The translations under genes and the position numbers were made by a program. From a virus (Duplodnaviria; Caudoviricetes), in the IMG/VR virus record IMGVR_UViG_3300020049_002269, positions 2,188 through 66,187 of that record: a stretch of 64,000 bases of DNA. One strand, given 5' to 3'. Every line of letters begins with the position of its first letter. Within the stretch, counting starts at the first letter, position 1. Below, piece by piece: positions 20,948-64,000 of this stretch. The notes below the pieces were generated by a model, which made no database searches, was not told the DNA's origin, and saw only the letters and a program-made list of their open reading frames with translations.

Positions 20948-21068
20948 GGCTTCGGCCCGCCCACCCCTCACATGACCACAGATGCCCCCAAGCCGATGAC
21001 GAACGCGGAACGCCAGCGCGCTTTCCGCGCCCGCAAAGCAGCACAAACAGCAGCCGAGGTGCGCGGCG
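20948..21068 (+). repeat. Direct repeat copy 1 (121 bp; copy 2 at 63880-64000)
   Basis: 120/121 identical; single C/A difference at 21013/63945 (synonymous Arg codon). Confidence 0.95.
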
Positions 21069-21163
21069 TGTTCGCCCGCCCCGATGACCACCAGGCCGTG
21101 AAGGACTACGCCGCCAAGCTGGCCAAGAAGCGGGCGAAGGCGGAGAAGGCTGATGGGGCCTAA
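20972..21163 (+). CDS. Small basic helical putative DNA-binding protein
   Basis: MTTDAPKPMTNAERQRAFRARKAAQ...; stop inside the attC2 box; duplicated at the window end. Confidence 0.7.
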   Translation: MTTDAPKPMTNAERQRAFRARKAAQTAAEVRGVFARPDDHQAVKDYAAKLAKKRAKAEKADGA

Positions 21164-21213
21164 CCAATAAGTTAACCGGCGCCGTCGGCGTCCGGTTGAA
21201 CTGGCGGTTAGGC
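21158..21213 (-). other. attC site 2 (56 bp)
   Basis: GCCTAAC-caataa-GTTAACC-ggcgccgtcggcgTcc-GGTTGAAC-tggcg-GTTAGGC; extrahelical G and T on the + strand. Confidence 0.92.
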
Positions 21214-21240
21214 GTTACGGACTAAACAGAAAGGATGCAC

Positions 21241-21522
21241 ATGAGCACCGAAGCAATGAAACTTGCGCTTGAGGCAATTCAGGACTTGCGAGGCTATCGA
21301 CCAGATATTGATAAGGCAATCGACGCGATCCGCACCGCCATCCAGCAGGCAGAGGCCCAGCAGCCCGCCACGCCTGAGCGGGTGCCGATGACGGATGAAG
21401 AAATAGGTTATTGGTATTCCCGCACACCATCAAACTTTGTATTCAGCCACTTCAAGGCAGCTATTCGCTCAGCCGAAGCCCACCACGGCATCACCACCAC
21501 CCCGCAGCCAAGTAACGCCTAA
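21241..21522 (+). CDS. Hypothetical cassette protein (phage mosaic type)
   Basis: MSTEAMKLALEA...AEAQQPA...MTDEEI...AIRSAEAHHGI; GAAAGGA RBS; stop inside the attC3 box. Confidence 0.7.
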   Translation: MSTEAMKLALEAIQDLRGYRPDIDKAIDAIRTAIQQAEAQQPATPERVPMTDEEIGYWYSRTPSNFVFSHFKAAIRSAEAHHGITTTPQPSNA

Positions 21523-21639
21523 CGCTGAGGTAACAGGCGCGCCGACTACCGGCGCAAACAAAGGAGAGGAAGCATGAACACACGAAACATCAAAACGAAG
21601 CTGCTGATCGGCGCGTCCTTGTTGACCGCCGTGTTAGCG
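21517..21639 (-). other. attC site 3 (123 bp), overlapped by the start of a lipoprotein gene
   Basis: GCCTAAC-gctga-GGTAACA-ggcgcgccga...tcggcgcgTcct-TGTTGACC-gccgt-GTTAGCG. Confidence 0.8.
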
Positions 21640-21816
21640 GCTGGGTGCAGTAATGAAAACTTGAATTTGCAACTAAGCAATGCCGTTAGCGAAGCAGACA
21701 AGCATACAGGGGTGATTCTATATAGCGGATATAGCTTCCAGCTTGTGCGCGTGAATATCAACGGCGTGGATTACATCGCCAACAGCAAAGGCGGACTTGT
21801 TCGTGTTGACCGCTAA
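21574..21816 (+). CDS. Small lipoprotein (cassette gene)
   Basis: MNTRNIKTKLLIGASLLTAVLAAG-C lipobox; GGAGAGG RBS inside attC3; stop inside the attC4 box. Confidence 0.75.
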   Translation: MNTRNIKTKLLIGASLLTAVLAAGCSNENLNLQLSNAVSEADKHTGVILYSGYSFQLVRVNINGVDYIANSKGGLVRVDR

Positions 21817-21912
21817 CGTTGCCAATAACCGGATACCAACGGCGCCGCAGGACTGACCGGAGCGCACCACGGCCACCCGCCGATGGTATTCCGGTTGATT
21901 GGCTGGTTAGGC
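21811..21912 (-). other. attC site 4 (102 bp)
   Basis: CGCTAAC-gttgcc-AATAACC-ggataccaacggcg...cgccgatggtaTtcc-GGTTGATT-ggctg-GTTAGGC. Confidence 0.9.
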
Positions 21913-21939
21913 CCGACGTGACCAACTAGGAGAACCACT

Positions 21940-22182
21940 GTGCAGATTACAGAGTACGTGCCCGCCGAGAAGTTTGGCCAGTTCCACGCGATCCTGTGCG
22001 CGACAGGTGGGCGCTACCTACGCGACCCATTCCCGTTGTGGGCGCGCGTGGAGGTGCATTACGAGCCAGGCGACTACAAGGCGCACTGCGAGGCATGGGC
22101 GCGCTGTGTGACGCCGATTCGAGAGGTCAGGCGAGATCAATGGTGGCGCGTGGCGCTGCGCCGCTGTGGACTGCGGGCCTAA
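21940..22182 (+). CDS. Hypothetical cassette protein (80 aa)
   Basis: GTG start with AGGAG RBS; stop inside the attC5 box. Confidence 0.65.
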   Translation: MQITEYVPAEKFGQFHAILCATGGRYLRDPFPLWARVEVHYEPGDYKAHCEAWARCVTPIREVRRDQWWRVALRRCGLRA

Positions 22183-22233
22183 CAAGACAGCTAAGCGCGC
22201 GGCGTAGCCGTCCGCTTGAGCGAACGGTTAGGC
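22177..22233 (-). other. attC site 5 (57 bp)
   Basis: GCCTAAC-aagaca-GCTAAGC-gcgcggcgtagccgTcc-GCTTGAGC-gaacg-GTTAGGC; clearly related to attC1. Confidence 0.92.
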
Positions 22234-22251
22234 GGCGCATCGGAGGATCAC

Positions 22252-22494
22252 ATGGACGACCCGCAAGAAAGAGCAAAGCGACTGGCGACAACAGCCGCCG
22301 AGGAATTTGTTAGGTGCAACGGCATCTCGACCGGCACGCCAGATGAATTCATTTTTCACGGCGCAGACCTTGCCGATGAGTATTTTCAGGACTGTATCGC
22401 GCACCTGAAATGGGCCGGCGAATGCGTGGTTTTTGAGCATGATGAAGAAACGACGGTTCTTCTCGGAGATTACACATTGGGGAGCTTTGAATGA
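22252..22494 (+). CDS. Hypothetical acidic cassette protein
   Basis: MDDPQERAKRL...; GGAGG RBS just after attC5. Confidence 0.65.
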   Translation: MDDPQERAKRLATTAAEEFVRCNGISTGTPDEFIFHGADLADEYFQDCIAHLKWAGECVVFEHDEETTVLLGDYTLGSFE

Positions 22495-22766
22495 GCAAAT
22501 CAACAGTGCCGCAGCGCGCCAAGAAGTACGCAGACAACTTCAACGCATCGCAAGACCTGACGCTGCAACACGCCGCATGCGCGGGGTTCAGGGCCGGATT
22601 TGAAGCGCACAAACGCGACGTTCGGCCAACACTGCACGATCTTGAGGACGAATGCCGTCGCAGGTTCTATTACCTGAGCAAGATGGGTCTATGGGATGAC
22701 TACCTGGCCAGAAAAGAGCAGGGCGAATTTGAGTTCGTGCGCGGCATTAAGCGCTGCGCAAAGTGA
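22491..22766 (+). CDS. Hypothetical cassette protein (91 aa)
   Basis: ATGA-coupled to the previous ORF; ends 1 nt before the GCCTAAC box. Confidence 0.6.
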   Translation: MSKSTVPQRAKKYADNFNASQDLTLQHAACAGFRAGFEAHKRDVRPTLHDLEDECRRRFYYLSKMGLWDDYLARKEQGEFEFVRGIKRCAK

Positions 22767-22805
22767 CGCCTAACCGTTATTAGGCGTCGGAACCTGACGG
22801 ATAAC
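22765..22805 (-). other. attI-like tyrosine-recombinase core site
   Basis: GACGCCTAA-CCGTTA-TTAGGCGTC (9-bp arms, 6-bp spacer), no L boxes; on minus an upstream GTTATCC lies 31 nt before the G/TT crossover. Confidence 0.55.
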
Positions 22806-22842
22806 GATGGCCCTCACTGGGCCATCCACACAGAAAGCACAC

Positions 22843-23031
22843 ATGAGCTTTACCATTACCCCAACGCGATGCGAAATCTGGGGCGAAGAACTGGAAGCGG
22901 TGATTGAGATGCAAGACAAGTACGCCTCCAGCGTCACCATCAAGGCGCTGCAATCGCCCGCCTCATGGCGCGAACTGGCCGAGGCCGTGCAGTGCGCACT
23001 GGAGACGATGCACCCGGAGTCAGCCAAATGA
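22843..23031 (+). CDS. Hypothetical protein
   Basis: MSFTITPTRCEIW...; coupled to the next ORF. Confidence 0.55.
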   Translation: MSFTITPTRCEIWGEELEAVIEMQDKYASSVTIKALQSPASWRELAEAVQCALETMHPESAK

Positions 23032-23228
23032 CCGACACCAAAGTAGCTTGGAAGCGCCGAGCATTGAGGGCTGAGCAGGAGCTTGAGGACCTTCGGAAAA
23101 TCCGCGATTCCGAGACGGACATGCAGCGCAGCTTGCTCAGGCAGGCTGGCGGGTTTGCCGTGGCGATCAGCGAAATTGAGGACGCTATCCAAGCGGCAAA
23201 AGACTACATCGGAGGGAGTGCACGATGA
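23028..23228 (+). CDS. Hypothetical coiled-coil protein
   Basis: MTDTKVAWKRRALRAEQELEDLRK... Confidence 0.55.
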   Translation: MTDTKVAWKRRALRAEQELEDLRKIRDSETDMQRSLLRQAGGFAVAISEIEDAIQAAKDYIGGSAR

Positions 23229-23539
23229 CACGCGAACAGAAACTAGCCCACCTTCAAGCGTGGCACGACGCCATGACCCGCGCAGACGACGCAATCCAGC
23301 CGGTCATCGACGCGCTCAAGCTGTGCGGAGAAGACCCCATCACGAACACTGTATGGCAGTTGCAAACCGACCTCACGCGGGCCTATGCCGAGATTCTGGA
23401 TGACGCGTTTGAATCGCTGAGCTGGTACGCGAGCGAGAACGACATGGGCGCGAAAGGTAGAGAGGCTGGCATCGGATCAGATGTGCGCCCAATCCGCACG
23501 GTGGAAGACCTGCTGTGGCTGATTGAGGTGACAGCATGA
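23225..23539 (+). CDS. Hypothetical protein
   Basis: 104 aa; LSWYASENDMG...IRTVEDL; GGAGG-like RBS. Confidence 0.6.
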   Translation: MTREQKLAHLQAWHDAMTRADDAIQPVIDALKLCGEDPITNTVWQLQTDLTRAYAEILDDAFESLSWYASENDMGAKGREAGIGSDVRPIRTVEDLLWLIEVTA

Positions 23540-23665: not shown

Positions 23666-24118
23666 TTAGCGAGGATTCACCGGCCAGGCTTCAATCATTG
23701 TCCTGAGGTCTGTGACGTGTCCGTCAGCTTTTCCCGCCAGCGCTGTAAGCTCTGCTGCACACTCTCCGAATACGTCTGCTGAGGCAATGGAGTAGTCAAC
23801 TGCGGAGGCGGGGGAAGCTGTGACGGCTGCAGATCGCTTTTTGATGGTGATGCGCAGCCGGTCAAGCTCAGAGCGAGCACCGTCAGCAGCAAGGCGGATT
23901 TCGTTTTCTCGTGTGCGCGCATTGTTCAGGGCCTCCGTATATTGGTCAGTGATGAGGCGCGTTTTGCGCTCTGCCTCGTTTCGTTCGGCTTGGCGCTCTG
24001 CCTCTATGGCGGAAATCTGTGATTGGTAGTGCGACTCAACCCGCCACCCATTGACAACAGCCCCCGCCACAAACGCAGCAAGCACCACCAACCCCTTAAC
24101 GTACACAGTCTGGATCAT
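23666..24118 (-). CDS. i-spanin (Rz-like)
   Basis: N-terminal TM helix GLVVLAAFVAGAVVNGW followed by coiled coil; downstream of the endolysin. Confidence 0.75.
   Translation of the reverse strand: MIQTVYVKGLVVLAAFVAGAVVNGWRVESHYQSQISAIEAERQAERNEAERKTRLITDQYTEALNNARTRENEIRLAADGARSELDRLRITIKKRSAAVTASPASAVDYSIASADVFGECAAELTALAGKADGHVTDLRTMIEAWPVNPR
23695..23922 (-). CDS. o-spanin lipoprotein (Rz1-like), embedded in the i-spanin
   Basis: Lipobox LSLTG-C, Pro-rich mature part, different frame fully inside Rz. Confidence 0.75.
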   Translation of the reverse strand: MRAHEKTKSALLLTVLALSLTGCASPSKSDLQPSQLPPPPQLTTPLPQQTYSESVQQSLQRWREKLTDTSQTSGQ

Positions 24119-24633
24119 TTGACCACCTCCTGAGCAATGGCAGAAGCGACAAGCCATTTGCGTGCGTTGTAAGTCTCTAGGTCCGCTTTGTTGCTGATGA
24201 AGAAGACCTCGACCACCATGCCGCCAGCGCGGACAAAGCCCAACCGGCCACGCGCCGTCTGAGTCTGGTCGATCCATCCCTGATCACCTCTCAGACGCAT
24301 ACCAAGCACATCGGCAATAGCTTTAGCGATCCTCTGCGCCTTGGCCTTGTCACGCGGCATAGCGACAACCTCAACACCCGTAGCAGTCTGGTTGGCCGAT
24401 GCGTTGCAGTGCAATTCAATCGCACAATCAGAACCCGGCACAAGCGTCAGTGCATGGGCAAGAGGCAGGTTCTGCCATGCCTCACCATCTGTCCTGACAT
24501 CATGACCCGTGAGCCTAACCTTGTGCGCCACACAATCACGAAGCCACGTCATCAAGTCGCGTTCGTTCTCGCCATGCGCTACTGCGCCAGGGTCTTTGTC
24601 GCTGTGTCCTGCTGTGATTGTGATGGTTTTCAT
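24115..24633 (-). CDS. Endolysin, N-acetylmuramoyl-L-alanine amidase (Amidase_3)
   Basis: ITAGHS..DPGA...E, IELHCNAS, GVEV, VVEVFFISNKAD; start MKTITIT. Confidence 0.88.
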   Translation of the reverse strand: MKTITITAGHSDKDPGAVAHGENERDLMTWLRDCVAHKVRLTGHDVRTDGEAWQNLPLAHALTLVPGSDCAIELHCNASANQTATGVEVVAMPRDKAKAQRIAKAIADVLGMRLRGDQGWIDQTQTARGRLGFVRAGGMVVEVFFISNKADLETYNARKWLVASAIAQEVVK

Positions 24634-24854
24634 GTGATCAGTGTAAGCCATGAGGCCATAATTACACCACCGATGACCGTCGCCAGCGCGTCGATGCGGT
24701 CGGGCGTGCCGTGCCCATGTGCATCCCATACTTCTTTGCCGACTGCTGCCACGATGACAGCCAGCATCGCCGGGACGACGCCCCACGGCAGCAGGGCCGC
24801 AGCGACGACAGCGCCTGCGAGTGTGTGGGCGATTTTGTCGATGGAGATCATCAC
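24630..24854 (-). CDS. Small membrane protein
   Basis: DKIAHTLAG...KEVWD...DALAT, hydrophobic. Confidence 0.6.
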   Translation of the reverse strand: MMISIDKIAHTLAGAVVAAALLPWGVVPAMLAVIVAAVGKEVWDAHGHGTPDRIDALATVIGGVIMASWLTLIT

Positions 24855-26719
24855 GCCACCCGCACTTGCAGCACCGACCCGTTGCGGTACAGCCCACCGA
24901 TTGGGATCCCGCCAGTAGCTGCCGCCGCATCGCTTGCGTAGGCTGGAACGTCTTGGATCAGCGTAGTTCCTCCGCCGAGCGCAATGTTGTTGAACACGTT
25001 GTTGAATCGCACCAATCGGCTTGTGGTGCCAAATGCGTTCAGTGTTGCGCCATCACGAAACACGTTGTTGTAAATAGTGATGTCCTGAGCATCACCATTT
25101 GTCCCTGCCGTTGCCCCAGGCTGACCGCCTATAGCTACCTCTTTTGAGAAGACGTTACCGTCTACAACCCAGCGATTTGGCGCATTGGTGCCGTTAGTGT
25201 TTGGTCCTGAATAAATATCCGTCGTGCCAGTAGTTCCGCTGAACACGTTATCCGAAATCTTCCAGTCGTTCCCGCCGCTGCTGGACGATGTTTGCGCAAG
25301 CAGCAGTCCGTTCTGGCAGTTCTTGACCCTGTTTCCCGTGAAGGCGACATTGCTTGACGACAGGTGATAGATGACGTGTGTCAGGTTCTCGAACTGATTC
25401 CCTGAAATAATCTTTTCGCCGCCGCTGGCGAACATACAGATAGCGTAGAAATTGCCTGTTGGCGAGACCCCGGCCACACGGTTATTCGTGAACTGAATCG
25501 AATGGCTGTACGCCCCAGAAGACACATCCAACACACACGCGGAAGGAAGCGCGGTGTTAGTGCGCAAAAAGATATTCCCATCAATGACTGTGTTCTCTGC
25601 GCTGTTCAGCAGATAGATGTACCCGCTGTTGCCGCCAGAGCAGACCACGTTGTCAAACACGTTGCTGCTGATGATGGTTTCGCCCAGCGTGTCCTCAAGA
25701 TGGATAGCCGAGTCACCGGCCACGTTCTTGACTGTGTTGCCGCTGATGATGACGCCGCGCACGCTGGTGATGCCCACAAAACGCTTTTCGGTTGCGGCTG
25801 TCGGATACCCGGCGCTGCCAGTGAACACGTTGTTTGTGATCGTCCAGAACTCAGAAGCCCCCGTCGATGTCTGGTTGGCCTCAACGAAGTCGGCCCCCAT
25901 GTTGACTGCTGTGTTGCCGTCAATCAGGACATGGTTGGATGAATAGCCCGCTTGCCCGATGATGCCGTAGCCTGTTGAGTCAAACGTACACCCACTGACG
26001 GTTACGTTATCGCACTCCCAAAGCCAAACCCGCTGATTCCCGCCGTGGAAATACACGTTCAGGAATTTGACGTTCTGCGAGTCACTGATAACCCGGATGC
26101 CCCCGTCAGCGCCCGCCGTGCCGTCCAACGTCAGATCGCGGATGCTCAGATTGTCGAAGCCGTTGGTGTCGATGTAGACGCTACCAGCCGCAGATTTGAG
26201 TACGCTGTCATGCCCCAACCCAAAGATTGACTGACCATCCGCCGTAAACGCAACGCTGGTTTCGTAGAGCGTGATGCCTGGCGGAATAAGAACAGATTTG
26301 CCGGTGTTGAGCGCATCCTGAAGGGAAGAATAGTCATTGACGCTCACAAACTCCCGCAGCTTTGCCTGCACAGTCGTGGCGACTGCGCCAGAGCCAGACC
26401 CGATGAACCCCACCAGCGCAGCGCCGCCAGTTGCGGCCAGGTCTGCGCGAAGAACACTAGCCCCATCAACAGAAACAAACTGCGCACGGATCGTAACTGT
26501 CCGACCATTACCTACGACGGTAATGTCATACAAACCATCAGGCGCATAGAAAGCAACCTTAGCAGAGCTGTCGGCAGTGAATGGGTTTGCCAGAGGGGAA
26601 CCAGATTCGTCCTGCAAACCAGTCGCAAGCGTAGCTGTTCCTGCCTCGTAAACAGTGACGGTAGCACCCGGCATGATATTACCTGATGCATCTTGCGCGA
26701 AGTATGTTTTCAGTTCCAT
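24851..26719 (-). CDS. Tailspike / depolymerase with right-handed beta-helix
   Basis: N-terminal QDASGNIMPGATVTVY..NPFTAD adaptor, many pectate-lyase-like repeats (ISGNTV, FTNNRV), C-terminal GGLYRNGSVLQVR. Confidence 0.8.
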   Translation of the reverse strand: MELKTYFAQDASGNIMPGATVTVYEAGTATLATGLQDESGSPLANPFTADSSAKVAFYAPDGLYDITVVGNGRTVTIRAQFVSVDGASVLRADLAATGGAALVGFIGSGSGAVATTVQAKLREFVSVNDYSSLQDALNTGKSVLIPPGITLYETSVAFTADGQSIFGLGHDSVLKSAAGSVYIDTNGFDNLSIRDLTLDGTAGADGGIRVISDSQNVKFLNVYFHGGNQRVWLWECDNVTVSGCTFDSTGYGIIGQAGYSSNHVLIDGNTAVNMGADFVEANQTSTGASEFWTITNNVFTGSAGYPTAATEKRFVGITSVRGVIISGNTVKNVAGDSAIHLEDTLGETIISSNVFDNVVCSGGNSGYIYLLNSAENTVIDGNIFLRTNTALPSACVLDVSSGAYSHSIQFTNNRVAGVSPTGNFYAICMFASGGEKIISGNQFENLTHVIYHLSSSNVAFTGNRVKNCQNGLLLAQTSSSSGGNDWKISDNVFSGTTGTTDIYSGPNTNGTNAPNRWVVDGNVFSKEVAIGGQPGATAGTNGDAQDITIYNNVFRDGATLNAFGTTSRLVRFNNVFNNIALGGGTTLIQDVPAYASDAAAATGGIPIGGLYRNGSVLQVRVA

Positions 26720-26728
26720 GTCTATGCC

Positions 26729-27703
26729 TTAAAACTTGAGCATTGCCGAGAAGGCGGTATTGCGTGGTCTAGTTTCGTTCCCGCCTGTTGCTTGTGTCTG
26801 ATTTGTTATTGCGAAATTTGGCCCACCAACCGGGATTCCTCCGGTGCCTGTCGTGTTTGAAATAGGAATTGCGTGCGTGTGGCTTTTGATTTCGTCATCC
26901 TGCCAAGACCCCATAGCACGCCCAGCATCAACGCCTCGCCCATCATCCCAGAACCGCTGGAATTCCCCGCGAACGTCGAACGCACGGAACGTCACGCCAT
27001 CAGCGTTATCTGCCATGAGCAGTGTGCCCGCCTGCCAAACACCAACCGCCACGAATCGCCCATTGTGCAGGCCCCACGCACGCAGGGCAGCGTACTGAGA
27101 GCGGCTCAGAGCCAACGTTTCAGAGCCGACCCGACGATAGCCTGTTCGTGCTGTTGGCTGCGTGTCCATCTCAATGCGGCCAACGAATTGCGATGCGTAG
27201 CCAGTGTACGAAGCGCCGTTAGCCGTGAACGACTGCCACGTCATGAGCGAGTTGTAATCGTCATGCCAGATGGGGCCAACGTTTGCTGTTGGCAAAGCCT
27301 CGCCCGATGTGAAAAACCGACGCTGATACGCATCAATCCAGGACGCCCCCACAGCGCCGGGTTCGGTGTTGTTCGTTGCAGCAGTAGAAAGCCATGCACG
27401 CGAGTTGTGGTACACCACCGCATTGATTGGATAAGGCGCACCCAACGACGACCACGATGCCGCGCCCTGCAACTGAATCTCTCCAATGGCCTGGGTCGCC
27501 ATGAACAAAACGCCGTTCATTTCCTCACGGCCAACCGGCTTGTAATCAGGGTCAGGCACACCCGGCGAGATTTCACGCGGGCGCTCATAGTCAAACCCCC
27601 AGCCCTGTGGCAAGCTCACCGAACCGTCAGGCTGAGTAGCAGATGGGATAGTGATTTTGTCGCCAGCGTTTGCAAATGGCGTCTTGAAAATGTGGGCCAT
27701 CAA
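26729..27703 (-). CDS. Tail fiber with collar domain
   Basis: IFKTPFANAGDK...GWGFDYE N-terminus; DVRGEFQRFWDDGRGVD...SWQDDEIKSHTH...ETRPRN C-terminus. Confidence 0.82.
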   Translation of the reverse strand: MMAHIFKTPFANAGDKITIPSATQPDGSVSLPQGWGFDYERPREISPGVPDPDYKPVGREEMNGVLFMATQAIGEIQLQGAASWSSLGAPYPINAVVYHNSRAWLSTAATNNTEPGAVGASWIDAYQRRFFTSGEALPTANVGPIWHDDYNSLMTWQSFTANGASYTGYASQFVGRIEMDTQPTARTGYRRVGSETLALSRSQYAALRAWGLHNGRFVAVGVWQAGTLLMADNADGVTFRAFDVRGEFQRFWDDGRGVDAGRAMGSWQDDEIKSHTHAIPISNTTGTGGIPVGGPNFAITNQTQATGGNETRPRNTAFSAMLKF

Positions 27704-28335
27704 GCCTCCAAAATAAGTGCTGTCTCGTTAAAAACGAGCACGTTTGTTTCGCTGATATTGTATCCAACAGTGGACGGGCGCAGCAGTAAATCGTATTTCT
27801 CAAGCACAAGACGCAACGAACTCGGAATGAGAAAATTGAACTGATAGTCAATCGTCATGTCCTGATTGTCTGTGACGTATGCGTTCCCACCGAAGTCAGT
27901 AAACACCGTTGACAAAATGCGATTGATGTTAGGTAGTGTCGGGCGCGTCGTGAGTTGCGCATAACGCAATCTGATAACCAAACGCTTTTGATCTGTGGTC
28001 AAAGAGATGGTGCCAGAGTTCAGGCGAGAGAAGTTACCGTTCTCAAAGTTCTCGTTGTACTGACCAAAACCGAAAGCAGGCTCAGCAGCAGAGGCGTCAA
28101 CATCTACGCCTAGATCAATATCGAGAATCCGAGACCAGACAGCCAGCCCGAAATCGTTTGCCGTGTTGAAGTCAAACACGTCACGAATCCAAGATTCCCA
28201 GAACTCAACCTGAGCCCCATCAAACCATGCTTGCTCAGCCTCAACAATACGGCGCAGGTTATCCGCCCCTTCGTATTGCCACAGAATGGCCAGAAGCAGG
28301 TTTACGTTAGCGTCGATATGCTGAATCGTGCTCAT
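27700..28335 (-). CDS. Baseplate wedge protein (DUF2612-like)
   Basis: ILWQY..A..L, FNTANDFGLAVWSRIL; position after baseplate J. Confidence 0.7.
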   Translation of the reverse strand: MSTIQHIDANVNLLLAILWQYEGADNLRRIVEAEQAWFDGAQVEFWESWIRDVFDFNTANDFGLAVWSRILDIDLGVDVDASAAEPAFGFGQYNENFENGNFSRLNSGTISLTTDQKRLVIRLRYAQLTTRPTLPNINRILSTVFTDFGGNAYVTDNQDMTIDYQFNFLIPSSLRLVLEKYDLLLRPSTVGYNISETNVLVFNETALILEA

Positions 28336-41020: not shown

Positions 41021-41049
41021 GCTTCCATTATATCCAAAATGGTGGTTTG

Positions 41050-52840: not shown

Positions 52841-52906
52841 AGCTGGGGGGGCTTGATCTGGTCGTTTTGTTGGCTAAGATGCGAACATCAACACACCGAG
52901 CAACCA

Positions 52907-55316: not shown

Positions 55317-55514
55317 ATGATGGCTGAACTACTGGACGAAGTGCGAAAGCACGACCGGGCCGAGGTTTCGTACAAAACCGGCGTATCACTTAGCACACTC
55401 AACACCCTGCTAAGTGGCGCAAACCAAAACCCGACGATCGCAACACTCAACAAGTTGCGTGCGTTTTTGGACCAAAAGGAGGCTGAAAATGGGACTACTG
55501 GACAGGGCAAGTAA
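55317..55514 (+). CDS. Cro-like XRE HTH protein
   Basis: AEVSYKTGVSLSTLNTLLSGANQNPTIATLNKL. Confidence 0.75.
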   Translation: MMAELLDEVRKHDRAEVSYKTGVSLSTLNTLLSGANQNPTIATLNKLRAFLDQKEAENGTTGQGK

Positions 55515-56316: not shown

Positions 56317-56853
56317 ATGAGCTTTTGGACGACAAGCACCGGCGAGGCCGTGCAACAGGTTGGATCTTTTGAGGCGGGTGGTGGTGCTTTGGCTCCCATT
56401 CCTGAAGGGACGGCAGTTCTGGCAAGCGCTGAGGAATCGACCTGGAAAGAGTATCAAGGCGACCGATACATCAACATTAAATGGCGTGTTGCCAAGCCTG
56501 CCGAGTACGCGAACCGCGTCATCTTTCAGAAGGTGCGAGTGTGCGATGCTGACAGCTCAAAGGCAGACCGCGCAAAGCAAATGCTGGCTGCGATTGCCAC
56601 GAACACGGGCGGCGCTCTGTTCCAGTCGATGCAGAAGAATCGTGAGCAAGAGCCGAGCGACGCCAGCTTGTCTACGCTGTGCAATCGCCCGATGGTGCTG
56701 AAGCTCGGCGTGTGGGACATGAACGGCAAGACCGGCAACCACGTCAATGCGGTTTCGCCTCCTAAGTCTCAGACGGCTGCGCCAGCGCCCGCACCGAAGC
56801 CGAAGCCTGCGCCGGTTATTGATGACATGGACGACGAAATCCCTTTTAACTAA
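56317..56853 (+). CDS. ssDNA-binding protein (DUF669-like)
   Basis: PIPEGT...acidic C-terminal DDMDDEIPFN. Confidence 0.75.
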   Translation: MSFWTTSTGEAVQQVGSFEAGGGALAPIPEGTAVLASAEESTWKEYQGDRYINIKWRVAKPAEYANRVIFQKVRVCDADSSKADRAKQMLAAIATNTGGALFQSMQKNREQEPSDASLSTLCNRPMVLKLGVWDMNGKTGNHVNAVSPPKSQTAAPAPAPKPKPAPVIDDMDDEIPFN

Positions 56854-56957: not shown

Positions 56958-57866
56958 ATGCAAGCAAACGATAACACAGTCGAGCAACGCACGCAAGAAT
57001 GGCACGAGCAGCGCAAGTTGCGGATCACGGGTAGCCGTGTCGGGGCCATCTTGGGATTGTCGCCTTGGCAGACTCGCGACGACGTTCTGCGTGCGATGGT
57101 GCGCGAGTATCACGGCGCTCCTTCTGAATTTTTAGGGTCTGTAGCAACCGACCACGGCAATGCAAACGAGCAGCGTGCCGTTTTGGCTTTCATGCGTGAG
57201 ACTGGCCTGAACGTCGAGAAGTGCGGTTTCTTCCCGTATGGTGACCGCATGGGGGCAAGCCCTGACGGTCTGACTGATGACGGCGGTGTGCTTGAAATCA
57301 AAGTGCCTTTTGGGTTGCGCAACGAACCAAAAGCAAAGTTCAAGCCTCTTGCCGAGCAACCCCACTACGCCGCCCAGGTGCAGATGGAAATGCTTTCCGC
57401 TGGCCGCAAGCACGCTTATTTTGCGCAGTACATCGCACCGAAAGGCGACCCGCTTAGCCCAGACTATGTGCCAGAGCAAATCAACGTCGAGCGCGTTGAG
57501 CTTGACGATACATGGCTAGACCGGAACCTTGACGCGATCAGCCATTTCTACGACTTGTTGCTGTCCGAGCTGAACAACCCAGAGCACCTAGAACCGTTGC
57601 GCGTCATCATCGACGCACAGGAAGTCCTGGACGAAATCGACATGCTCCGAACGAGGCAGAAAGCAGACGAGGCACGCGAGAAAGAATTGCTGTCTGTGCT
57701 GATAAAACAGGCTGAAGGCAAAAACGCGCTGGTCAATGGCCGCAAGCTAACGTTGTCCAAAGACAGCAAGAGCGTAGCATACGCCAAAGCCATCGCGGAG
57801 CTTGCGCCAGACGCAGACCTTAGCAAGTGGACGAGCGTTAAGCGTGGGTCTTGGAGGCTCACATGA
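56958..57866 (+). CDS. YqaJ/lambda-exonuclease family nuclease
   Basis: QRTQEWHEQRKLRITGS, GASPDG, LEIKVP, YAAQVQ. Confidence 0.88.
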   Translation: MQANDNTVEQRTQEWHEQRKLRITGSRVGAILGLSPWQTRDDVLRAMVREYHGAPSEFLGSVATDHGNANEQRAVLAFMRETGLNVEKCGFFPYGDRMGASPDGLTDDGGVLEIKVPFGLRNEPKAKFKPLAEQPHYAAQVQMEMLSAGRKHAYFAQYIAPKGDPLSPDYVPEQINVERVELDDTWLDRNLDAISHFYDLLLSELNNPEHLEPLRVIIDAQEVLDEIDMLRTRQKADEAREKELLSVLIKQAEGKNALVNGRKLTLSKDSKSVAYAKAIAELAPDADLSKWTSVKRGSWRLT

Positions 57867-59677
57867 TCCATGCGCGTCCGTACCAACAGGAAGCACACGA
57901 TGCTGTGATTGAGCATTGGAAGCGCAGCACCCTGCCTTGCGTTGTAGAGGCTGCAACCGGGGCGGGCAAGAGCGTGATCGTCGCCATGCTTGCGCATACC
58001 TTGCACAATCTGTCAGGTGGTAAGCGCGTTTTGTGCCTTGCGCCAGGCGCAGAGCTTGTGACCCAAAACGCTGAGAAGTACAAAGCCATTGGCGAGCGGT
58101 GCAGCATCTACAGCGCCAGCGCGGGAAGTAAAAGCCTGCGCTATCAGGTGGTGTTCGCAACTGAAGGTACGTTCAAAAGCCAGGCCAAGCGGATGGGTCC
58201 TGACTTTGCGGGGGTGATCGTAGACGAGTGCCATCGGCTCACGCCCACCATCAGAAAGATCATCGAAGACATGCGCAGCGGCAATCCTAATCTGCGCGTG
58301 TGCGGTCTGTCTGCGACGCCTTTTAGATTGGGCGACGGGTTCATTTTTGGTGTAGATCCTGACGGTAAGGCCATGCCAGACACCATCGCTCGTGAGCCGT
58401 ACTTTCACCAGTGTGTTTACGCCATCTCGGCGCGGATGCTTCTCAGCATGGGATACCTGACTCCCCTGCGTGCTGCTGATATCAACGCGGAAAGCTATGA
58501 CACATCAGGGCTGAAGGTAAAAGCCAACGGGACATTTGACCCTACATCGCTGAAAGCCGCATTCGAGGGATGGGGCCGCAAGACAAGCGCGATCATTGCT
58601 GATGTGGTTGCGCAGACGCAGACGGCCACTGGCGTCATGATTTTTTCAGCGACAGTGCAACATGCCAAAGAGGTGATGGCAAGCCTTCACCCAGACAATG
58701 CACGGTTGATCACTGGCGAGACACCGAAGACAGAACGAGACAAGATCATCAAGGACTTCAAAGCACGCAAGTTTTTGTACCTTGTGAACGTTTCGGTGCT
58801 AACCACAGGGTTTGACGCAGAGCACGTCTCACACATCGCCATCCTGCGAGCTACCGAATCCGTGAGCCTTTTACAGCAGATCATGGGCCGAGGCATGAGA
58901 CTGTGCGAAGGAAAGCACGAATGCGTGGTGCTGGACTACGCTGGCAACATTGACAAGCACATGCCTGATGGAGACTTGTATGCTCCCCAGATCAAGGCTG
59001 CGTACCAGTCAAGCGGAGGCGGTGTAATTGAGTGCCTGTGCGAAGGATGCGGGCGTGTGAACCTGTTCTCGGCACGGCCTAACGATAGCCATTACAACGT
59101 GGACGAGTACGGGTACTTTGCAGACTTGGACGGAGAACGCATCACGGTGCAGAACCATAAGGGGGAAGCTGTTCCCATGCCTGCGCACTTCGGCAGGCGG
59201 TGCCAGCATGTACACCTGAGAACGGGTGAGCGGTGCGATTACTTTTGGTCGTGCAAGGTTTGCACAGTCTGTGATCATGCGAATGACATTGCTGCTAGGT
59301 TTTGCAGCGGCTGTAAGACAGAGCTTGTGAACCCGAACGACAAGCTGATCGAGTTCTTCACAGCTCACAAGAAAGACCCGACACTTCCCCAGACTGATCA
59401 GGTGGTGTCAATCGACTACGTGCGAGGGATCAGCCGTGCAGGCAACGACATGTTGACGGCCAACATTGTGACCAGTCGGCGCAAGTTCTCGGTGTACCTT
59501 TTGGAAAACAACAACTACGCAGCCGCAAAGAAGGCAGCGTTTGCGGCTGGAACGGGTGAGTTCGCGCGCACGCCAAGGACGATCACATACGTGAAAGACG
59601 GGGACTTCTGGAAAGTGCTAGGGTTTGATCGTCCTAGCGACGAGGAAGAATTGCAAAGGAGACTGTGTGAAGTTTGA
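57863..59677 (+). CDS. SF2 DEAD/DEAH-type helicase with C-terminal Zn ribbon
   Basis: ARPYQ, ATGAGKS, IVDECH, LSATP, LTTGFD, QIMGRGMR. Confidence 0.9.
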   Translation: MIHARPYQQEAHDAVIEHWKRSTLPCVVEAATGAGKSVIVAMLAHTLHNLSGGKRVLCLAPGAELVTQNAEKYKAIGERCSIYSASAGSKSLRYQVVFATEGTFKSQAKRMGPDFAGVIVDECHRLTPTIRKIIEDMRSGNPNLRVCGLSATPFRLGDGFIFGVDPDGKAMPDTIAREPYFHQCVYAISARMLLSMGYLTPLRAADINAESYDTSGLKVKANGTFDPTSLKAAFEGWGRKTSAIIADVVAQTQTATGVMIFSATVQHAKEVMASLHPDNARLITGETPKTERDKIIKDFKARKFLYLVNVSVLTTGFDAEHVSHIAILRATESVSLLQQIMGRGMRLCEGKHECVVLDYAGNIDKHMPDGDLYAPQIKAAYQSSGGGVIECLCEGCGRVNLFSARPNDSHYNVDEYGYFADLDGERITVQNHKGEAVPMPAHFGRRCQHVHLRTGERCDYFWSCKVCTVCDHANDIAARFCSGCKTELVNPNDKLIEFFTAHKKDPTLPQTDQVVSIDYVRGISRAGNDMLTANIVTSRRKFSVYLLENNNYAAAKKAAFAAGTGEFARTPRTITYVKDGDFWKVLGFDRPSDEEELQRRLCEV

Positions 59678-60289: not shown

Positions 60290-60346
60290 CCCCCAATCAC
60301 TGCGGGTAGTGCTATGATTTTTCTATCAACAACGAAGGAGAGTGAA

Positions 60347-61057
60347 GTGAACAATCTTGATCTTTTCGGACAAGAGAAGAACGCTGAAATTTTGAACGAG
60401 TTTCAACATCTTGTTGAGGCTTATGTTGCATCGCTTGATCTTGACGAGCGAGTGACGGTAATCAACGAAGTGCGCGAGATGCTGCACAAGATCAGCCCGT
60501 TCGCGTCTGAGCCTGTGGACTTTGTGAAGTGGGTAAAAAACCCGCTCGTTCATCAGAACGACTACAACCCAAACAGCGTTGCGCCTCCAGAGATGGAGCT
60601 GCTGCGCGTGTCGATTCAGGCTGATGGGTACACGCAGCCAATTGTGTCAATGCCTGATCCTGATGGGCGGTATGAGGTGATTGACGGGTTCCACCGTCAC
60701 CGCGTCGGCAAGGAGTGCGAAGACATTCAATCTCGCGTGCATGGCTACTTGCCATTGGTGCAAATCCGTGAAAGTCAGAAAGACCGCAACAGCCGCATGG
60801 CATCCACCATTCGGCACAACCGAGCACGCGGAAAGCACAAGGTCGAGGCAATGTCAGACATTGTTATTGAACTCAAGAAGCGTAACTGGTCAGAGGACAG
60901 GATCGCCAAAGAGCTTGGCATGGAGCCTGACGAGGTGCTGCGTCTTTGCCAATTGTCTGGCCTTGCTGAATTGTTTACAGATCAAGAGTTCAGCAAGTCA
61001 TGGGACATTGACGACATTGAAGATGAATTCACCGGACTTGATGAGGCGCAGGAATGA
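60347..61057 (+). CDS. ibrB: IbrB-like ParB/Srx-domain protein
   Basis: EPVDFVKWV, NDYNPNSVAPPEM.LL..SI..DGYTQPIV, IDGFHR, STIRHNRARGKH. Confidence 0.85.
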   Translation: MNNLDLFGQEKNAEILNEFQHLVEAYVASLDLDERVTVINEVREMLHKISPFASEPVDFVKWVKNPLVHQNDYNPNSVAPPEMELLRVSIQADGYTQPIVSMPDPDGRYEVIDGFHRHRVGKECEDIQSRVHGYLPLVQIRESQKDRNSRMASTIRHNRARGKHKVEAMSDIVIELKKRNWSEDRIAKELGMEPDEVLRLCQLSGLAELFTDQEFSKSWDIDDIEDEFTGLDEAQE

Positions 61058-61479
61058 AGCGCATCTATCACACATGGGATAAGTGGGAGTGCTATCCGGC
61101 AGGGTTCTACGAGAACAAGCCAAAGAACAAAGACCTTGATGATGAATCATGCAGAAACATGTATGCCGAATTCTTGCGTGATATCCCGATGTTTGAGGCC
61201 GCAATGCAATCCATCATCGATAGGTGGCCGAACTCATGCGAGCACTACCTTAGCAACGAAAGCATGAACCGAATCGCATGGCTTGGTCAGGCCGCAATGT
61301 GCTACGCATACGGCATACCTTCTGTGTTTCGGGGTGGTTTCAATCGCATGACGAACGATGAACAAGAGCGAGCAAACCAATCCGCACTCAAGTACTTGAA
61401 CCGATGGCTTGTGAAGCATGGTGAAAGTGCTTTGACGATGGAAGAAGCGCAGTCCAAAACCGAAGCAAACTTGTATTGA
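61054..61479 (+). CDS. Conserved hypothetical protein in the ibr module
   Basis: YHTWDKWEC...NRIAWLGQAAMC; coupled between ibrB and ibrA. Confidence 0.65.
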   Translation: MKRIYHTWDKWECYPAGFYENKPKNKDLDDESCRNMYAEFLRDIPMFEAAMQSIIDRWPNSCEHYLSNESMNRIAWLGQAAMCYAYGIPSVFRGGFNRMTNDEQERANQSALKYLNRWLVKHGESALTMEEAQSKTEANLY

Positions 61480-62678
61480 TCATGTCAACACTCAAAAAAT
61501 ACAAAGAGCAAAACGTACTTGATGCTGCGCGTGAGCGCATTGCGTATGCGTTTGATGTGTTTGAGCGCATCTATGTGTCGTTCAGCGGCGGCAAGGATTC
61601 AAGCGTCATGCTTCACCTTGTTATGCAAGAAGCCATCAAGCGTGATCGTATTGTTGGCGTGCTGATCGTTGACCTTGAGGCTCAGTACAGCGCCACCATT
61701 GAGCACATCCATGAAATGATCGCCATGTACAAATCACACATGGACTTGCATTGGGTGTGTGTGCCGCTAAAACTTCGCAATGCCGTCACGAACTACGAGC
61801 CTCAGTGGATGGCATGGCAACCAGAGAAAAAAGACATCTGGGTGCGCGACATCCCCAAGGATGCAACAACGCATTACGACTGGTATGTCCCAGGCATGGA
61901 GTTTGAAGAATTCATCGTGGTGTGGGGTGAGTGGTATGCACAAGGCAAACCGACTGGTGGGTTTATTGGCATCCGTGCTGACGAGAGCCTGAACCGATTC
62001 CGCACCATTGCAGTGTGGGATAAAAAGATGCACGGAGGAAAGCGCTACACCACAAACATCAGCGGAGATCTTTACAACGTGTACCCAATCTATGATTGGC
62101 GCACAGAGGACATTTGGCGATTCCATGCAAAGTATCCAGACCTGCCCCACAATCGCATCTATGACCTGATGCACAAGGCTGGAGTGCCAATCAGCCAGCA
62201 GCGGCTGTGCCAGCCTTATGGAGACGATCAGCGCAAGGGCTTGTGGCTGTATCACATACTTGAGCCTCAGACATGGTTTAAGTTGATCGCCCGCGTCAAT
62301 GGCGCAAACACAGGTGCCTTGTATGTTCAAGAAAACGGCAACGTGATGGGCTATAACAAGATCAACAAGCCAGATGGACACACATGGAAGTCCTTCACCA
62401 ATCTGCTTTTGCAGTCCTTGCCAAAGCCAACACGAGACCATTACATCAAACGGTTTCGCTCATTCATCAAAGGATGGCAAGGGCGCGGATACGCCGAGAT
62501 TCCAGACGAAGCGCCAAAGACTCTTGAAGACAAACATTGGGCACCATCATGGCGTCGCATGTGCAAGGTCTTGCTGCGCAATGACTGGTGGTGCAAAGGG
62601 CTTGGCCTAACTCAACCAAAGAGTGAGGCTTACGGCAAGTTTCTCGAAATCAAAAAGGCCAAGAAAGCCGACGCATAA
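61476..62678 (+). CDS. ibrA: IbrA-like PAPS-reductase/PP-loop protein (DUF3440)
   Basis: VSFSGGKDS, IGIRADESLNRF, YPIYDW..EDIW, QRLCQPYG, PSWRRMCK.LL.ND.WC. Confidence 0.88.
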   Translation: MIMSTLKKYKEQNVLDAARERIAYAFDVFERIYVSFSGGKDSSVMLHLVMQEAIKRDRIVGVLIVDLEAQYSATIEHIHEMIAMYKSHMDLHWVCVPLKLRNAVTNYEPQWMAWQPEKKDIWVRDIPKDATTHYDWYVPGMEFEEFIVVWGEWYAQGKPTGGFIGIRADESLNRFRTIAVWDKKMHGGKRYTTNISGDLYNVYPIYDWRTEDIWRFHAKYPDLPHNRIYDLMHKAGVPISQQRLCQPYGDDQRKGLWLYHILEPQTWFKLIARVNGANTGALYVQENGNVMGYNKINKPDGHTWKSFTNLLLQSLPKPTRDHYIKRFRSFIKGWQGRGYAEIPDEAPKTLEDKHWAPSWRRMCKVLLRNDWWCKGLGLTQPKSEAYGKFLEIKKAKKADA

Positions 62679-62689
62679 GCAACCAAAAG

Positions 62690-62717
62690 AAAGGCCCACC
62701 ACCACTAGCGGGCCTTT
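62690..62717 (+). terminator. Intrinsic terminator after ibrA
   Basis: AAAGGCCC-N12-GGGCCTTT. Confidence 0.5.
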
Positions 62718-62743
62718 CTCAACCAAGTCAAAGTAGGAGACCT

Positions 62744-63073
62744 ATGGACTTCCCAATCTACCAACTCCAAGCCATGCGCACGGCCAAGCCGATGGAGCCG
62801 ATTGACGACCTGATGCACGCAGCATTGGGCCTTGCTGGCGAGGCTGGCGAGTTTGCCGACGCCGTGAAAAAGAACTTTGTCTATGGTCGAGAGCTTGACC
62901 GTGAGAACGCTATTGAGGAACTTGGCGACATTCTTTGGTTTGTGGCGCTGGGCTGTAATGCTTTGGGCATTTCAATGTCTGATGTGGCGCAACGCAACAT
63001 TGACAAGCTGCGTCGTCGGTATCCTGAGAAGTACGAGGATGAGTTGGCTTACAAGCGTATGGACAAAGCATGA
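62744..63073 (+). CDS. MazG-like nucleotide pyrophosphohydrolase
   Basis: LGLAGEAGEFADAVKK...EELGDILWF...NIDKLRRRYP. Confidence 0.85.
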   Translation: MDFPIYQLQAMRTAKPMEPIDDLMHAALGLAGEAGEFADAVKKNFVYGRELDRENAIEELGDILWFVALGCNALGISMSDVAQRNIDKLRRRYPEKYEDELAYKRMDKA

Positions 63074-63555
63074 GCAAACGCAAACGCTACCGCCCCAAGC
63101 CCGTCAACCCGAGCGTGCTGGCATTGGCGAGCATCGGCCAGTCAAAGCTGATGCCAGAGGATCAAGAGGCCCGCATTGCACCGCCTCGCCTTGCGCTTGA
63201 GCAGATCACCAAAGGGCAGGCATCACAAGCCGACTGGCAGGCGATATTTGATGTGATCAACATGCTGGATCGTTTTGTGAAAATGCCCACCGTGATGCGA
63301 CACGGTAAGGACTACCTGAACACCGTGCAGGGCGTTCTCGTGGCGATTCTTGACAGGCAGAAAGCAACAGGCACAAAGGCGATCTATCCTGGAGAGCTGG
63401 AAGACATTCGCGGATTGGTTGATCTTTGGTCTGAGCTTCTCGCCACCGTCACGCACCGTGAATACTCGCTTGCCGAGGATCGCGCACATGCTCGGCTTGT
63501 GTCTGTGCTGCGCGCAAGAAAGCCAGTGCCTGGCGTGATCGTGTGTGAGGCGTAA
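63070..63555 (+). CDS. Hypothetical helical protein
   Basis: Same apparent family as 17313-17747. Confidence 0.6.
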   Translation: MSKRKRYRPKPVNPSVLALASIGQSKLMPEDQEARIAPPRLALEQITKGQASQADWQAIFDVINMLDRFVKMPTVMRHGKDYLNTVQGVLVAILDRQKATGTKAIYPGELEDIRGLVDLWSELLATVTHREYSLAEDRAHARLVSVLRARKPVPGVIVCEA

Positions 63556-63642
63556 TCCCGACTGATCCGTGTGGGCTTTGCTTGCGTGCACTAGCGGTAG
63601 TGTTAAGATCACTACATCGACAACGCAAACGGAGAACGCAAG

Positions 63643-63867
63643 ATGACCACCACCAACACACGCCGCCTGCATCTGCGCGACACGAAGACGGGCAACGCAA
63701 CGTGCGCAGGTCGCCGCACCGGATACGGGCGCGAATACATCGTCGCCAAGTATTCCGAATTCGCAGTTTCCCCGACGGAAGCCCGCTGCGAGAAGTGCAC
63801 CAGCGGCAAACTGTTCGCTTTCCTGGAGCAACAGACCGCGAAAGCTCTGATCGGCGCCGCCGTCTGA
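63643..63867 (+). CDS. Hypothetical protein (74 aa)
   Basis: GGAG RBS within the conserved leader; C...C..C motif. Confidence 0.6.
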   Translation: MTTTNTRRLHLRDTKTGNATCAGRRTGYGREYIVAKYSEFAVSPTEARCEKCTSGKLFAFLEQQTAKALIGAAV

Positions 63868-63879
63868 ACTGAACACCAT

Positions 63880-64000
63880 GGCTTCGGCCCGCCCACCCCT
63901 CACATGACCACAGATGCCCCCAAGCCGATGACGAACGCGGAACGACAGCGCGCTTTCCGCGCCCGCAAAGCAGCACAAACAGCAGCCGAGGTGCGCGGCG
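63880..64000 (+). repeat. Direct repeat copy 2, containing the 5' part of a second copy of the MTNAERQR gene (ATG 63904); runs off the edge
   Basis: 120/121 identical to 20948-21068. Confidence 0.95.

Follow-up and report, generated by a model that had tools for sequence, protein, structure and literature searches.

A 66-kb virus record that is probably a chimeric assembly of a podovirus fragment and a complete circular myovirus genome

We conclude that the virus record analyzed here is most likely not one DNA molecule but the product of a tail-plus-loop path in a short-read de Bruijn graph. The window, by which we mean the whole 64,000-nt stretch that we analyzed, contains a podovirus fragment (segment A, positions 1–20196, 64–66% GC), about half of a genome of ~44–45 kb, and a complete 42,932-bp myovirus genome (segment B, positions 21069–64000, ~55% GC) that closes through a small shared gene. 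Segment A extends a further 2,187 bp to the left of the window, up to the contig start, which falls inside an ORF and truncates it. The 66,187-bp IMG/VR contig has its final base at window position 64000, and the record's length equals 23,255 + 42,932 bp. The contig's end is an internal exact repeat of k-mer-like length, duplicate hallmark gene sets coincide with a break in composition, and each part has stand-alone relatives of normal size (~43–45 kb) that lack the other part.

The direct repeat and the end of the contig

The window carries a 126-nt direct repeat with 98% identity, whose copies at 20943–21068 and 63875–64000 (both on the plus strand) lie 42,932 bp apart. The first copy consists of a hairpin (GGGC-TTCG-GCCC) and the first 32 codons of a shared 63-aa gene (20972–21163, plus strand); the second lies at the extreme end of the contig, which cuts the gene after codon 32. 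The copies differ at two positions, one in the non-coding hairpin flank (20947/63879) and one at a synonymous site (21013/63945, CGC/CGA, Arg); counted from 20948, this is the 121-bp repeat with one synonymous mismatch that the first-pass annotation had reported. That annotation was also right that different small ORFs stand behind homologous leaders upstream of each copy. ORF68 (20731–20937) precedes the first copy, and ORF74 (63643–63867, plus strand), itself preceded by B's own promoter and leader at ~63590–63642, stands before the second. A common 17-nt leader occurs at 10407, 20698 and 63614, against 0.01 occurrences expected by chance.

The last 55 nt of the contig are an exact copy of 21014–21068, and the SNP lies immediately to their left. 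This terminal run looks like the trace of a de Bruijn vertex with k=55, in which case the contig looks like a tail (A) that enters a cycle (B) and walks it once. A k of 55 is standard in SPAdes; the assembler and k for this record are undocumented. An independent contig, L128, stops on the same base as this record. Both L128 and a second contig, L124, contain ORF74 and the repeat at 99.5% identity, and L124 continues through to the end of the shared gene.

The proposed sequence of events is as follows. Segment B, closed by the shared gene, would form a cycle in the assembly graph, and the path from A, roughly half of an unrelated ~44–45 kb podovirus, would enter this cycle via sequence common to co-occurring phages. 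The assembler would have walked A, entered the cycle, completed one round and stopped on meeting the already-used 55-mer at 21014–21068, which is why the contig would end on that 55-mer. The two 'gene copies' would then be two paths converging on one graph vertex, and the repeat copies would represent one locus in two allelic forms, from two B-type strains whose cassettes differ, or else a single small gene that two different phages have in common. We infer the graph topology, the assembler's k and the exact position of the false join. A chimeric assembly through the repeat had been listed as an alternative in the first-pass annotation, and it is now favored by the terminal 55-mer and by contig L004, in which B closes on itself via the shared gene.

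The same repeat can be read in a second way. The direct repeats formally flank B, attC-like sites adjoin the repeat, and the assembler did choose the path from A to B, as would be expected of a real cointegrate in which recombination, homologous or site-specific, had inserted B into A between shared-gene copies (A-left, repeat, B, repeat, A-right). The first-pass annotation had proposed such nesting, which we consider highly improbable. The contig stops at the second copy, A-right is not attached and the carrier sequence does not resume; the podovirus continuation that was to be sought right of the window cannot exist on this record, because the contig ends at 64000. Six-frame searches of the whole record found neither tyrosine (PF00589) nor serine (PF00239) recombinases, with positive controls detected, which bears out the earlier remark that no integrase is seen in either segment; among the scanned ORFs, to which the check for transposases was confined, there were zero recombinase or transposase matches. 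A cointegrate of ~45 + 43 kb would exceed every related genome (39–46 kb), and neither capsid would be likely to hold it. Finally, the record holds two unrelated head and packaging sets, whose stand-alone relatives were noted above, the exact 55-mer at its end agrees with a loop in the graph, and L004 closes B without A.

The databases treat the record as a unit: CheckV rates it 100% complete, and IMG/VR lists one virus and calls it linear. Accordingly, A and B might be parts of one genuine 66-kb linear phage, with the repeat an internal duplication that falls at the end by chance, but this is scarcely credible. The TerL, portal and capsid sets are duplicated and unrelated, and B also has TerS, sheath, tube, baseplate and lysis genes; the left end truncates an ORF and the right end truncates a gene; and no relative has both gene sets. 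There is moreover a 10-point GC break, with GC falling from 64–66% to 54–58% around 20–21 kb. The 4-mer signature shifts between ~20.25 and 21.15 kb, and 4-mer correlations are 0.94–0.95 within each segment and 0.84 between segments.

A circular myovirus genome in segment B

Gene matches confirm the earlier claim of a full myovirus gene set in the 42,932-bp right-hand segment, including sheath, tube, baseplate, TerL, TerS and capsid. On the minus strand lie the spanin and endolysin (23666–24930), fibres (24851–27703), baseplate (27700–31303), tape measure (32129–33565), tube (34144–34593), sheath (34639–36129), capsid (38350–39435), protease (39932–41053), portal (45117–46622), TerL (46632–48002) and an Sf6-like TerS (47986–48462). 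The early genes, on the plus strand, encode a prim-pol (52829–55255), Sak4 (55414–56316), SSB (56317–56853), exonuclease (56958–57866), helicase (57851–59677), ParB-like protein (60314–61057), PAPS-reductase-like protein (61476–62678) and MazG (62744–63073). A small-ORF array (21241–23539) follows the closure point. Segment B thus combines complete structural, packaging, lysis and replication gene sets with closure into a circle. A Mu-like transposable phage was considered and rejected, since the early region consists of prim-pol, Sak4, SSB, exonuclease and helicase, without a transposase-like match. A tRNA scan found none.

The closure is seen in contig L004, which comes from another metagenome and lacks A. 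One synteny block in it spans B-end, the shared gene and B-start. On the B-end side it contains the ParB-like gene (98%), ORF141 (99%), the PAPS-reductase-like gene (97.5%), ORF161 (92%) and cassettes; it then runs onward through the shared gene (100% at the amino acid level), ORF22807 (89%), ORF23225 (96%), the spanin (96%) and the endolysin (86%). This block indicates that B-end joins B-start in nature. The Sf6-like TerS, the one feature that bears on packaging, suggests that B probably packages by a headful mechanism; headful packaging would make B circularly permuted, and a circularly permuted genome would form a cycle in the assembly graph.

Another B-type relative, G012 (TerL 86%), has an implied genome of ~43 kb and lacks A's capsid gene. 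Most of the matches to the PAPS-reductase gene, records G006–G010, lack B's sheath and have only that module in common with B; they were dropped as B relatives. L004 was kept on account of its long synteny. A megablast of B against cultured phages gave zero matches.

The podovirus fragment, the cassette array and the probable joint

In segment A, PHROG matches identify the major capsid (479–1483), protease (1497–2087), portal (2811–4499), TerL (4752–6359) and primase-helicase (7359–9368) on the minus strand, followed on the plus strand by an exonuclease (12412–13665), a Gp2.5-like SSB (13676–14302), a DNA polymerase (14387–16678), an endonuclease (16732–17316) and a helicase (17744–19135). Relatives L084–L119 align with segment A up to 20196, ~750 bp left of the repeat. 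The five complete A-type relatives measure 44.0–45.1 kb (CheckV 100% complete; two of the five with DTRs); all five have A's capsid gene, at 48–78% identity, and none has B's sheath. In one relative, L085, tail-fibre and giant virion-protein genes come after the helicase arm; this record lacks them, and no separate contig with the missing half of A was identified. Megablast against cultured phages gave short matches, and those only for A.

Between the end of this alignment and the repeat core lies a cassette stretch (20313–21013, plus strand), which B-type arrays elsewhere match. It contains ORF69 (20354–20563), attC-like element 1 (20559–20617), a sigma70-like promoter with a palindrome and leader (20640–20733) and ORF68, followed by the hairpin and the 5′ part of the first shared-gene copy, all on the plus strand. 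ORF69 recurs at 98.6–99.2% identity in contigs L212–L214 with B-start sequence directly after it, and L004 13084–13218 is 94% identical to 20594–20733. Altogether, the B-type arrays of four independent contigs contain ORF69 and the promoter that lies here to the left of the repeat; viral contigs yielded no ORF69 relatives. Because 20313–21013 matches B-type arrays, the two copies of the repeat could represent alleles of two B strains, which would place the joint with A near 20196–20313.

A hybrid 123-aa ORF (19986–20357, plus strand) spans this position. Its residues 1–70 are A-type, 88% identical to a 79-aa protein of A relatives, whereas residues 71–123 form a promiscuous C-terminal module that is borne on many unrelated N-termini. 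No protein combining both halves at high identity was found among 5.8 billion proteins. Seventeen database matches once read as a natural full-length 123-aa form were withdrawn; they consist of the conserved C-terminal module with a weak alignment extension. We lean toward a false join at ~20196–20313, inside the hybrid ORF, with the 55-mer as the alternative site. The exact joint at ~20196 is absent from other viral contigs, an absence that carries no weight either way.

The hybrid ORF also bears on a third reading, in which A really carries 20197–21013, perhaps along with the entire small-ORF array and the lysis cassette, having obtained this sequence from B-type phages through recombination at conserved linkers. 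The assembler would then have erred later, by following B and not A's tail module, so that the contig would still be chimeric and B would still stand alone. No stop codon interrupts the ORF at the suspected joint, its good third-position GC makes it look coding there, and an ATGA overlap couples it to ORF69; this coupling, however, is a property of the C-terminal module, since L212 has the ATGA behind a different gene. At 10391–10442 (plus strand), segment A has the −10 box of the promoter once more, together with the leader, RBS and start codon, at 92% identity to 20682–20733. This copy lies deep within A, before a phrog_3308 ORF, and L085 has a diverged version before the homologous ORF. Furthermore, A relative L084 and B have a 74-aa endolysin N-terminal piece in common (match to 24636–24858). 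The promoter copy and the endolysin piece indicate that A and B draw on one gene pool. Other tblastx matches between the downstream regions of A relatives and the contig were mostly high-GC noise, and only the L084 match was accepted.

The mobility of the shared gene and of the C-terminal module among many phage types likewise suits a natural mosaic, but the A-type genomes themselves do not. The four complete A-type genomes searched all lack attC-like elements and give no DNA match to 20197–21220; a relative that is 64% complete likewise lacks the attC-like pattern, and its record has a single 21-nt match to that interval. The helicase-flanking regions of 36 A-type contigs lack the shared gene, the settings in which ORF69 and the promoter turn up are all B-type or other ones, and the hybrid ORF is unique in the protein search. 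We therefore hold a natural mosaic to be unlikely. It is correspondingly doubtful that the A-to-array joint is real and that a podovirus and a myovirus, both virulent, unrelated to each other and of one community, carry the same promoter-bearing, attC-like-bounded cassettes, with the 63-aa gene at 98% nucleotide identity. If that joint were true, cassettes would move between unrelated phage families via attC-like or conserved linker sites without a phage-encoded integrase.

The shared 63-aa gene has 76 homologues, almost all on contigs shorter than 3.5 kb, which is what a breakpoint that recurs in assemblies would produce, and it occurs in at least three phage types. The first-pass claim that two unrelated phages share this module therefore holds in general; for podovirus A itself the sharing is unestablished, because the 20313–21013 flank matches B-type arrays elsewhere. 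The prediction that the gene finishes ~95 nt past 64000 holds in L124 and L004, but the podovirus sequence that was to follow did not materialize. In independent contigs, what comes after the shared gene is B-start in L004 and other genes in L124 and L122, the next one in L124 being a PAPS-reductase-like gene; it is never A-type sequence.

Two further attC-like elements lie in this region, element 2 (CCTAAC...GTTAGG; 21159–21212, plus strand), which overlaps the stop codon of the shared gene, and element 3 (22178–22232). The core pattern was found three times against 0.01 expected, and the elements overlap stop codons. Compared with shuffled sequences, two of the elements fold strongly (z −3.9 to −5.2) and one weakly (−1.3). 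An Rfam search of 19.5–24 kb returned zero matches, and Pfam and PHROGs searches with the shared gene, ORF68 and ORF74 gave nothing usable. Parts of the array (the 63-aa gene, ORF69 and the C-terminal module) recur at 85–99% identity in several unrelated phage backbones. What remains real is the small-gene array that causes the tangle, with its promoter-bearing cassettes, attC-like hairpins and conserved linkers.

Curation and comparison with known systems

A nested phage or a phage–phage cointegrate would be remarkable if true; the evidence points to an assembly artefact, and the main value of the analysis is therefore curation. The IMG/VR entry ought to become two, one for the complete circular 42,932-bp myovirus genome and one for the ~22–23 kb podovirus fragment, as the label '100% complete, linear, 66 kb' misleads statistics on size, host and taxonomy. 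A contig end that equals an internal exact repeat of k-mer length, together with duplicated hallmark genes, is a signature for which virus catalogues can be screened.

Both partners resemble cultured phages. The portals of BPP-1-like, Limnohabitans DC33 and Caulobacter BL94/Jess A-type podoviruses (39–46 kb) are 55–58% identical to A's, their head and replication layout is the same, and there are short nucleotide matches near the capsid gene; unlike them, A contains only about half a genome and misses the tail, injection and lysis genes. Similarly, Pseudomonas phage vB_PcuM_KLEP17-4 and the Bordetella avium vB_BaM-IFTN phages (~39–44 kb) have sheaths 55–61% identical to B's, a similar genome size and the same late-gene order. 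B differs from cultured myoviruses in having no nucleotide-level match and in carrying an IbrAB-like module, MazG and an attC-like cassette array, with no integrase found. The array itself may resemble the CALINs of virulent phages (Qi et al. 2023, PMC9892861), where hairpins with RYYYAAC...GTTRRRY-type ends likewise stand right after small ORFs in a genome without an integrase; here, by contrast, the cassettes have their own promoter and leader, and the elements are candidate attC sites by core pattern.

The architecture of the record imitates several known arrangements. As in a prophage or an integrative element with att direct repeats, direct repeats of ~121–126 bp enclose a complete phage genome, but integrase and transposase are absent, nothing lies past the right-hand repeat and a phage fragment stands in for the 'host'. 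As in the assembly overlap (DTR) of a circular genome, the contig end repeats B's start and marks a closed 42,932-bp cycle. Unlike the usual overlap, the matching copy is internal, behind a 23-kb foreign tail, and detectors of end repeats consequently call the record 'linear'. A further comparison is with chimeric contigs in short-read virome and metagenome assemblies (Roux et al. 2017, PMC5610896), in which two genomes are likewise joined at a short near-identical region common to co-existing viruses; as in those cases, this contig ends on an exact repeat of k-mer length and is ~1.5x the size of any related genome. It differs from them in that one of the two genomes is circular and was traversed in full a single time, and so looks like an element that lies between direct repeats.

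Gene content of the two segments

The contents of its two segments show that this contig carries two complete, unrelated packaging and head gene sets. The podovirus part (segment A, 1–20196) encodes a major capsid protein, protease, portal, TerL and primase-helicase on the minus strand, and an exonuclease, Gp2.5-like SSB, DNA polymerase, endonuclease and helicase on the plus strand. The myovirus part (segment B, 21069–64000) encodes a spanin, endolysin, fibres, baseplate, tape measure, tube, sheath, capsid, protease, portal, TerL and Sf6-like TerS on the minus strand, and a prim-pol, Sak4, SSB, exonuclease, helicase, ParB-like protein, PAPS-reductase-like protein and MazG on the plus strand. 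GC content falls from 64–66% to 54–58% around 20–21 kb, 4-mer usage correlates at 0.94–0.95 inside each segment and at 0.84 between them, and a 4-mer likelihood-ratio scan passes from A-like to intermediate at about 20.25 kb and turns B-like at about 21.15 kb. Six-frame searches, in which positive controls were detected, found neither tyrosine nor serine recombinases anywhere in the record, in agreement with its first-pass description as integrase-less.

Relatives of the A helicase lie on contigs of 44–46 kb, and cultured A relatives (BPP-1-like phages, Limnohabitans DC33 and Caulobacter BL94) measure 39–46 kb. Five A relatives are CheckV 100% complete, two of them with DTRs; all five carry the A capsid gene (48–78% identity), and none the B sheath. 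Past its helicase arm, the close relative L085 has convergent genes for tail fibre and a 1,417-aa virion protein, both missing from the record, whose left end truncates an open ORF. These missing genes, the cut ORF and the sizes of the relatives together indicate that A is about half a podovirus genome, and so holds some 22–23 kb of a genome of about 44–45 kb.

Closure of segment B and the end of the contig

L004, a 17.1-kb B-type contig from a different metagenome and without A genes, contains a block running from the B-end side (ParB-like, 98%; ORF141, 99%; PAPS-reductase-like, 97.5%; ORF161, 92%), through about 2 kb of other cassettes, to the shared 63-aa gene (20972–21163; 100% amino acid identity, and 98.7% nucleotide identity to 20943–21165), and on to the B-start side (ORF22807, 89%; ORF23225, 96%; spanin, 96%; endolysin, 86%). 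Because this block covers both sides of the contig-end repeat, B-end joins B-start via the shared gene in nature, and, judged by this gene order, B is closed on itself through that gene. The closed map is coherent, with early genes from 52.8 to 64.0 kb and then from 21.07 to 23.5 kb, and late genes from 51.4 kb down to 23.7 kb. The nearest structural relative, the genome G012 (TerL 86%), spans 35.6 kb at 82% completeness, implying about 43 kb, and lacks the A capsid gene; cultured relatives of the B sheath are 39–44 kb.

The module at 60314–63073 (L004 counterpart, 8396–10816) encodes the ParB-like protein, a 141-aa ORF, the PAPS-reductase-like (IbrAB-like) protein and then MazG. The first three share 97–99% protein identity with L004, whereas the other L004 replication genes share 30–36%, a difference that makes these three look mobile; MazG is an 18-aa remnant in L004. 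The N-terminal ~74 aa of the B endolysin (24636–24858) match 6692–6914 of L084, a close A-type relative (67–72% protein identity; 85.7% nucleotide identity over 175 nt), which hints that A-type and B-type phages swap lysis-gene domains and may share hosts.

The direct repeat (20943–21068 and 63875–64000) is 126 nt long, with 98% identity and a spacing of 42,932 bp. Its copies differ in a non-coding hairpin flank (20947/63879) and in a synonymous Arg codon (21013/63945), and both contain a GGGC-TTCG-GCCC hairpin and codons 1–32 of the 63-aa gene. The small ORFs upstream, ORF68 (20731–20937) and ORF74 (63643–63867), are different, and each follows a sigma70-like promoter and a common 17-nt leader. 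The repeat is therefore as first noticed, with one synonymous mismatch in its coding part and different ORFs upstream. Three sites in the window carry the leader (10407, 20698 and 63614; 0.01 expected), and three different genes are headed by the same −10 box, identical 17-nt leader, RBS and start codon (10391–10442, 20682–20733 and 63600–63645). The first of these lies deep within segment A, before a phrog_3308 ORF; in L085 a diverged version of this start region stands before the homologous ORF, at another genome position.

The window covers bases 2188–66187 of the IMG/VR record, which is classed as linear, so position 64000 is its final base and the sequence that the first-pass annotation predicted past this point has no place on the record. 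Read back from this end, the repeat comprises 55 exact nucleotides (63946–64000 = 21014–21068), a SNP and then 65 exact bases, and the record's length is 66,187 bp = 23,255 + 42,932. An exact, SNP-bounded 55-nt terminal copy of an internal site fits a de Bruijn walk returning to a used vertex: two paths would converge on one vertex, and the returning walk would stop there on an internal copy of k-mer length. A k of 55 is standard in SPAdes. The ENA contig L128 (OFRO01003549.1) carries the ORF74-repeat cassette at 3557–3943 (99.5% identity), with different genes upstream and the same final base as the record, a sign that a second, independent assembly broke at this point of its graph too. Chimeric virome contigs are known to arise from similar regions of co-existing viruses (PMC5610896). 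The first-pass annotation had proposed that B is nested between the repeat copies as a cointegrate, which is unsupported, since the contig ends at the second copy and B closes in L004 without A. Its alternative, chimeric assembly through the repeat, is favoured by the terminal 55-mer, the shared end of L128 and the two unrelated hallmark sets; we consider it very probable that the record is a chimeric assembly.

Position of the join

Homology to A relatives stops abruptly at 20196, within a 123-aa ORF (19986–20357). Residues 1–70 match a 79-aa protein of A relatives at 88% identity, residues 71–123 (20196–20357) form a C-terminal module that some 90 proteins, unrelated at their N-termini, share at 80–95% identity, and none of 5.8 billion proteins carries both halves at high identity. 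The module, ~45–53 aa and highly conserved with the motif YDAGILNDFGGGNVEWWQDYIRAEL (P0085, P0093, P0098, P0110), occurs on proteins of roughly 60–216 aa, a few of which also bear an RF-1 domain (PF00472).

ORF69 (20354–20563) recurs at 98.6–99.2% nucleotide identity in three independent ENA contigs (L212, L213 and L214), where the genes ahead of it differ from the record. B-start sequence comes directly after it in all three, corresponding to 22768–23166 in L212 and to 21156–21384 in L213 and L214. The promoter and leader at 20594–20733 are 94% identical to those of L004. Given these contexts and this match, 20313–21013 looks like B-type array material. In the simplest reading, two B-type strains, one with cassettes ORF69/ORF68 and the other with ORF74, would converge at the 55-mer, and A would be attached near 20196–20313 via a stretch common to the hybrid 123-aa ORF. 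Alternatively, A natively owns the cassettes and the misjoin is the 55-mer itself. We regard this as unlikely: 20197–21220 is unmatched in all four re-searched complete A relatives, and these four and one 64%-complete relative contain no attC-like element. The topology of the graph, its k and the precise place of the misjoin are inferred; with either join, the record mixes two replicons.

The cassette array

What stays of interest here is the cassette array, rather than the nesting or cointegrate claim. Three plus-strand, attC-like hairpins with CCTAAC...GTTAGG ends (20559–20617, 21159–21212 and 22178–22232; 0.01 expected in the window) each overlap the stop codon of the small ORF ahead of them. 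Their ends fit the attC core consensus, two of the three fold far better than shuffled controls (z −3.9 to −5.2), and similar hairpins occur in L004 (12336–12390, 13052–13107) and the contigs L121, L123, L125, L127 and L128. Unrelated small genes share a conserved 3′ tail (20313–20357; L212 1151–1195; P0093 and other L212 genes). This tail encodes the protein end ...GITAQAKKETP, its stop overlaps the next ATG, and it supplies both RBS and start codon to the gene that follows, a make-up suggestive of a recombination linker.

The 63-aa gene has 76 homologues (P0001–P0076), nearly all on 0.5–3.5 kb contigs across ENA, JGI and Logan assemblies; it lies on eight metagenome contigs with varied flanks, and a 40-kb phage that also encodes ERF and Gp157 has it too. 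One homologue, P0058, is in a Propionivibrio MAG, a possible hint of host group. The conserved cassette boundaries account for natural shuffling as well as for graph collisions. A genuine recombinant molecule may exist at low abundance beside the favoured chimeric assembly. Clusters of attC sites without an integrase have been reported from virulent phages (PMC9892861).
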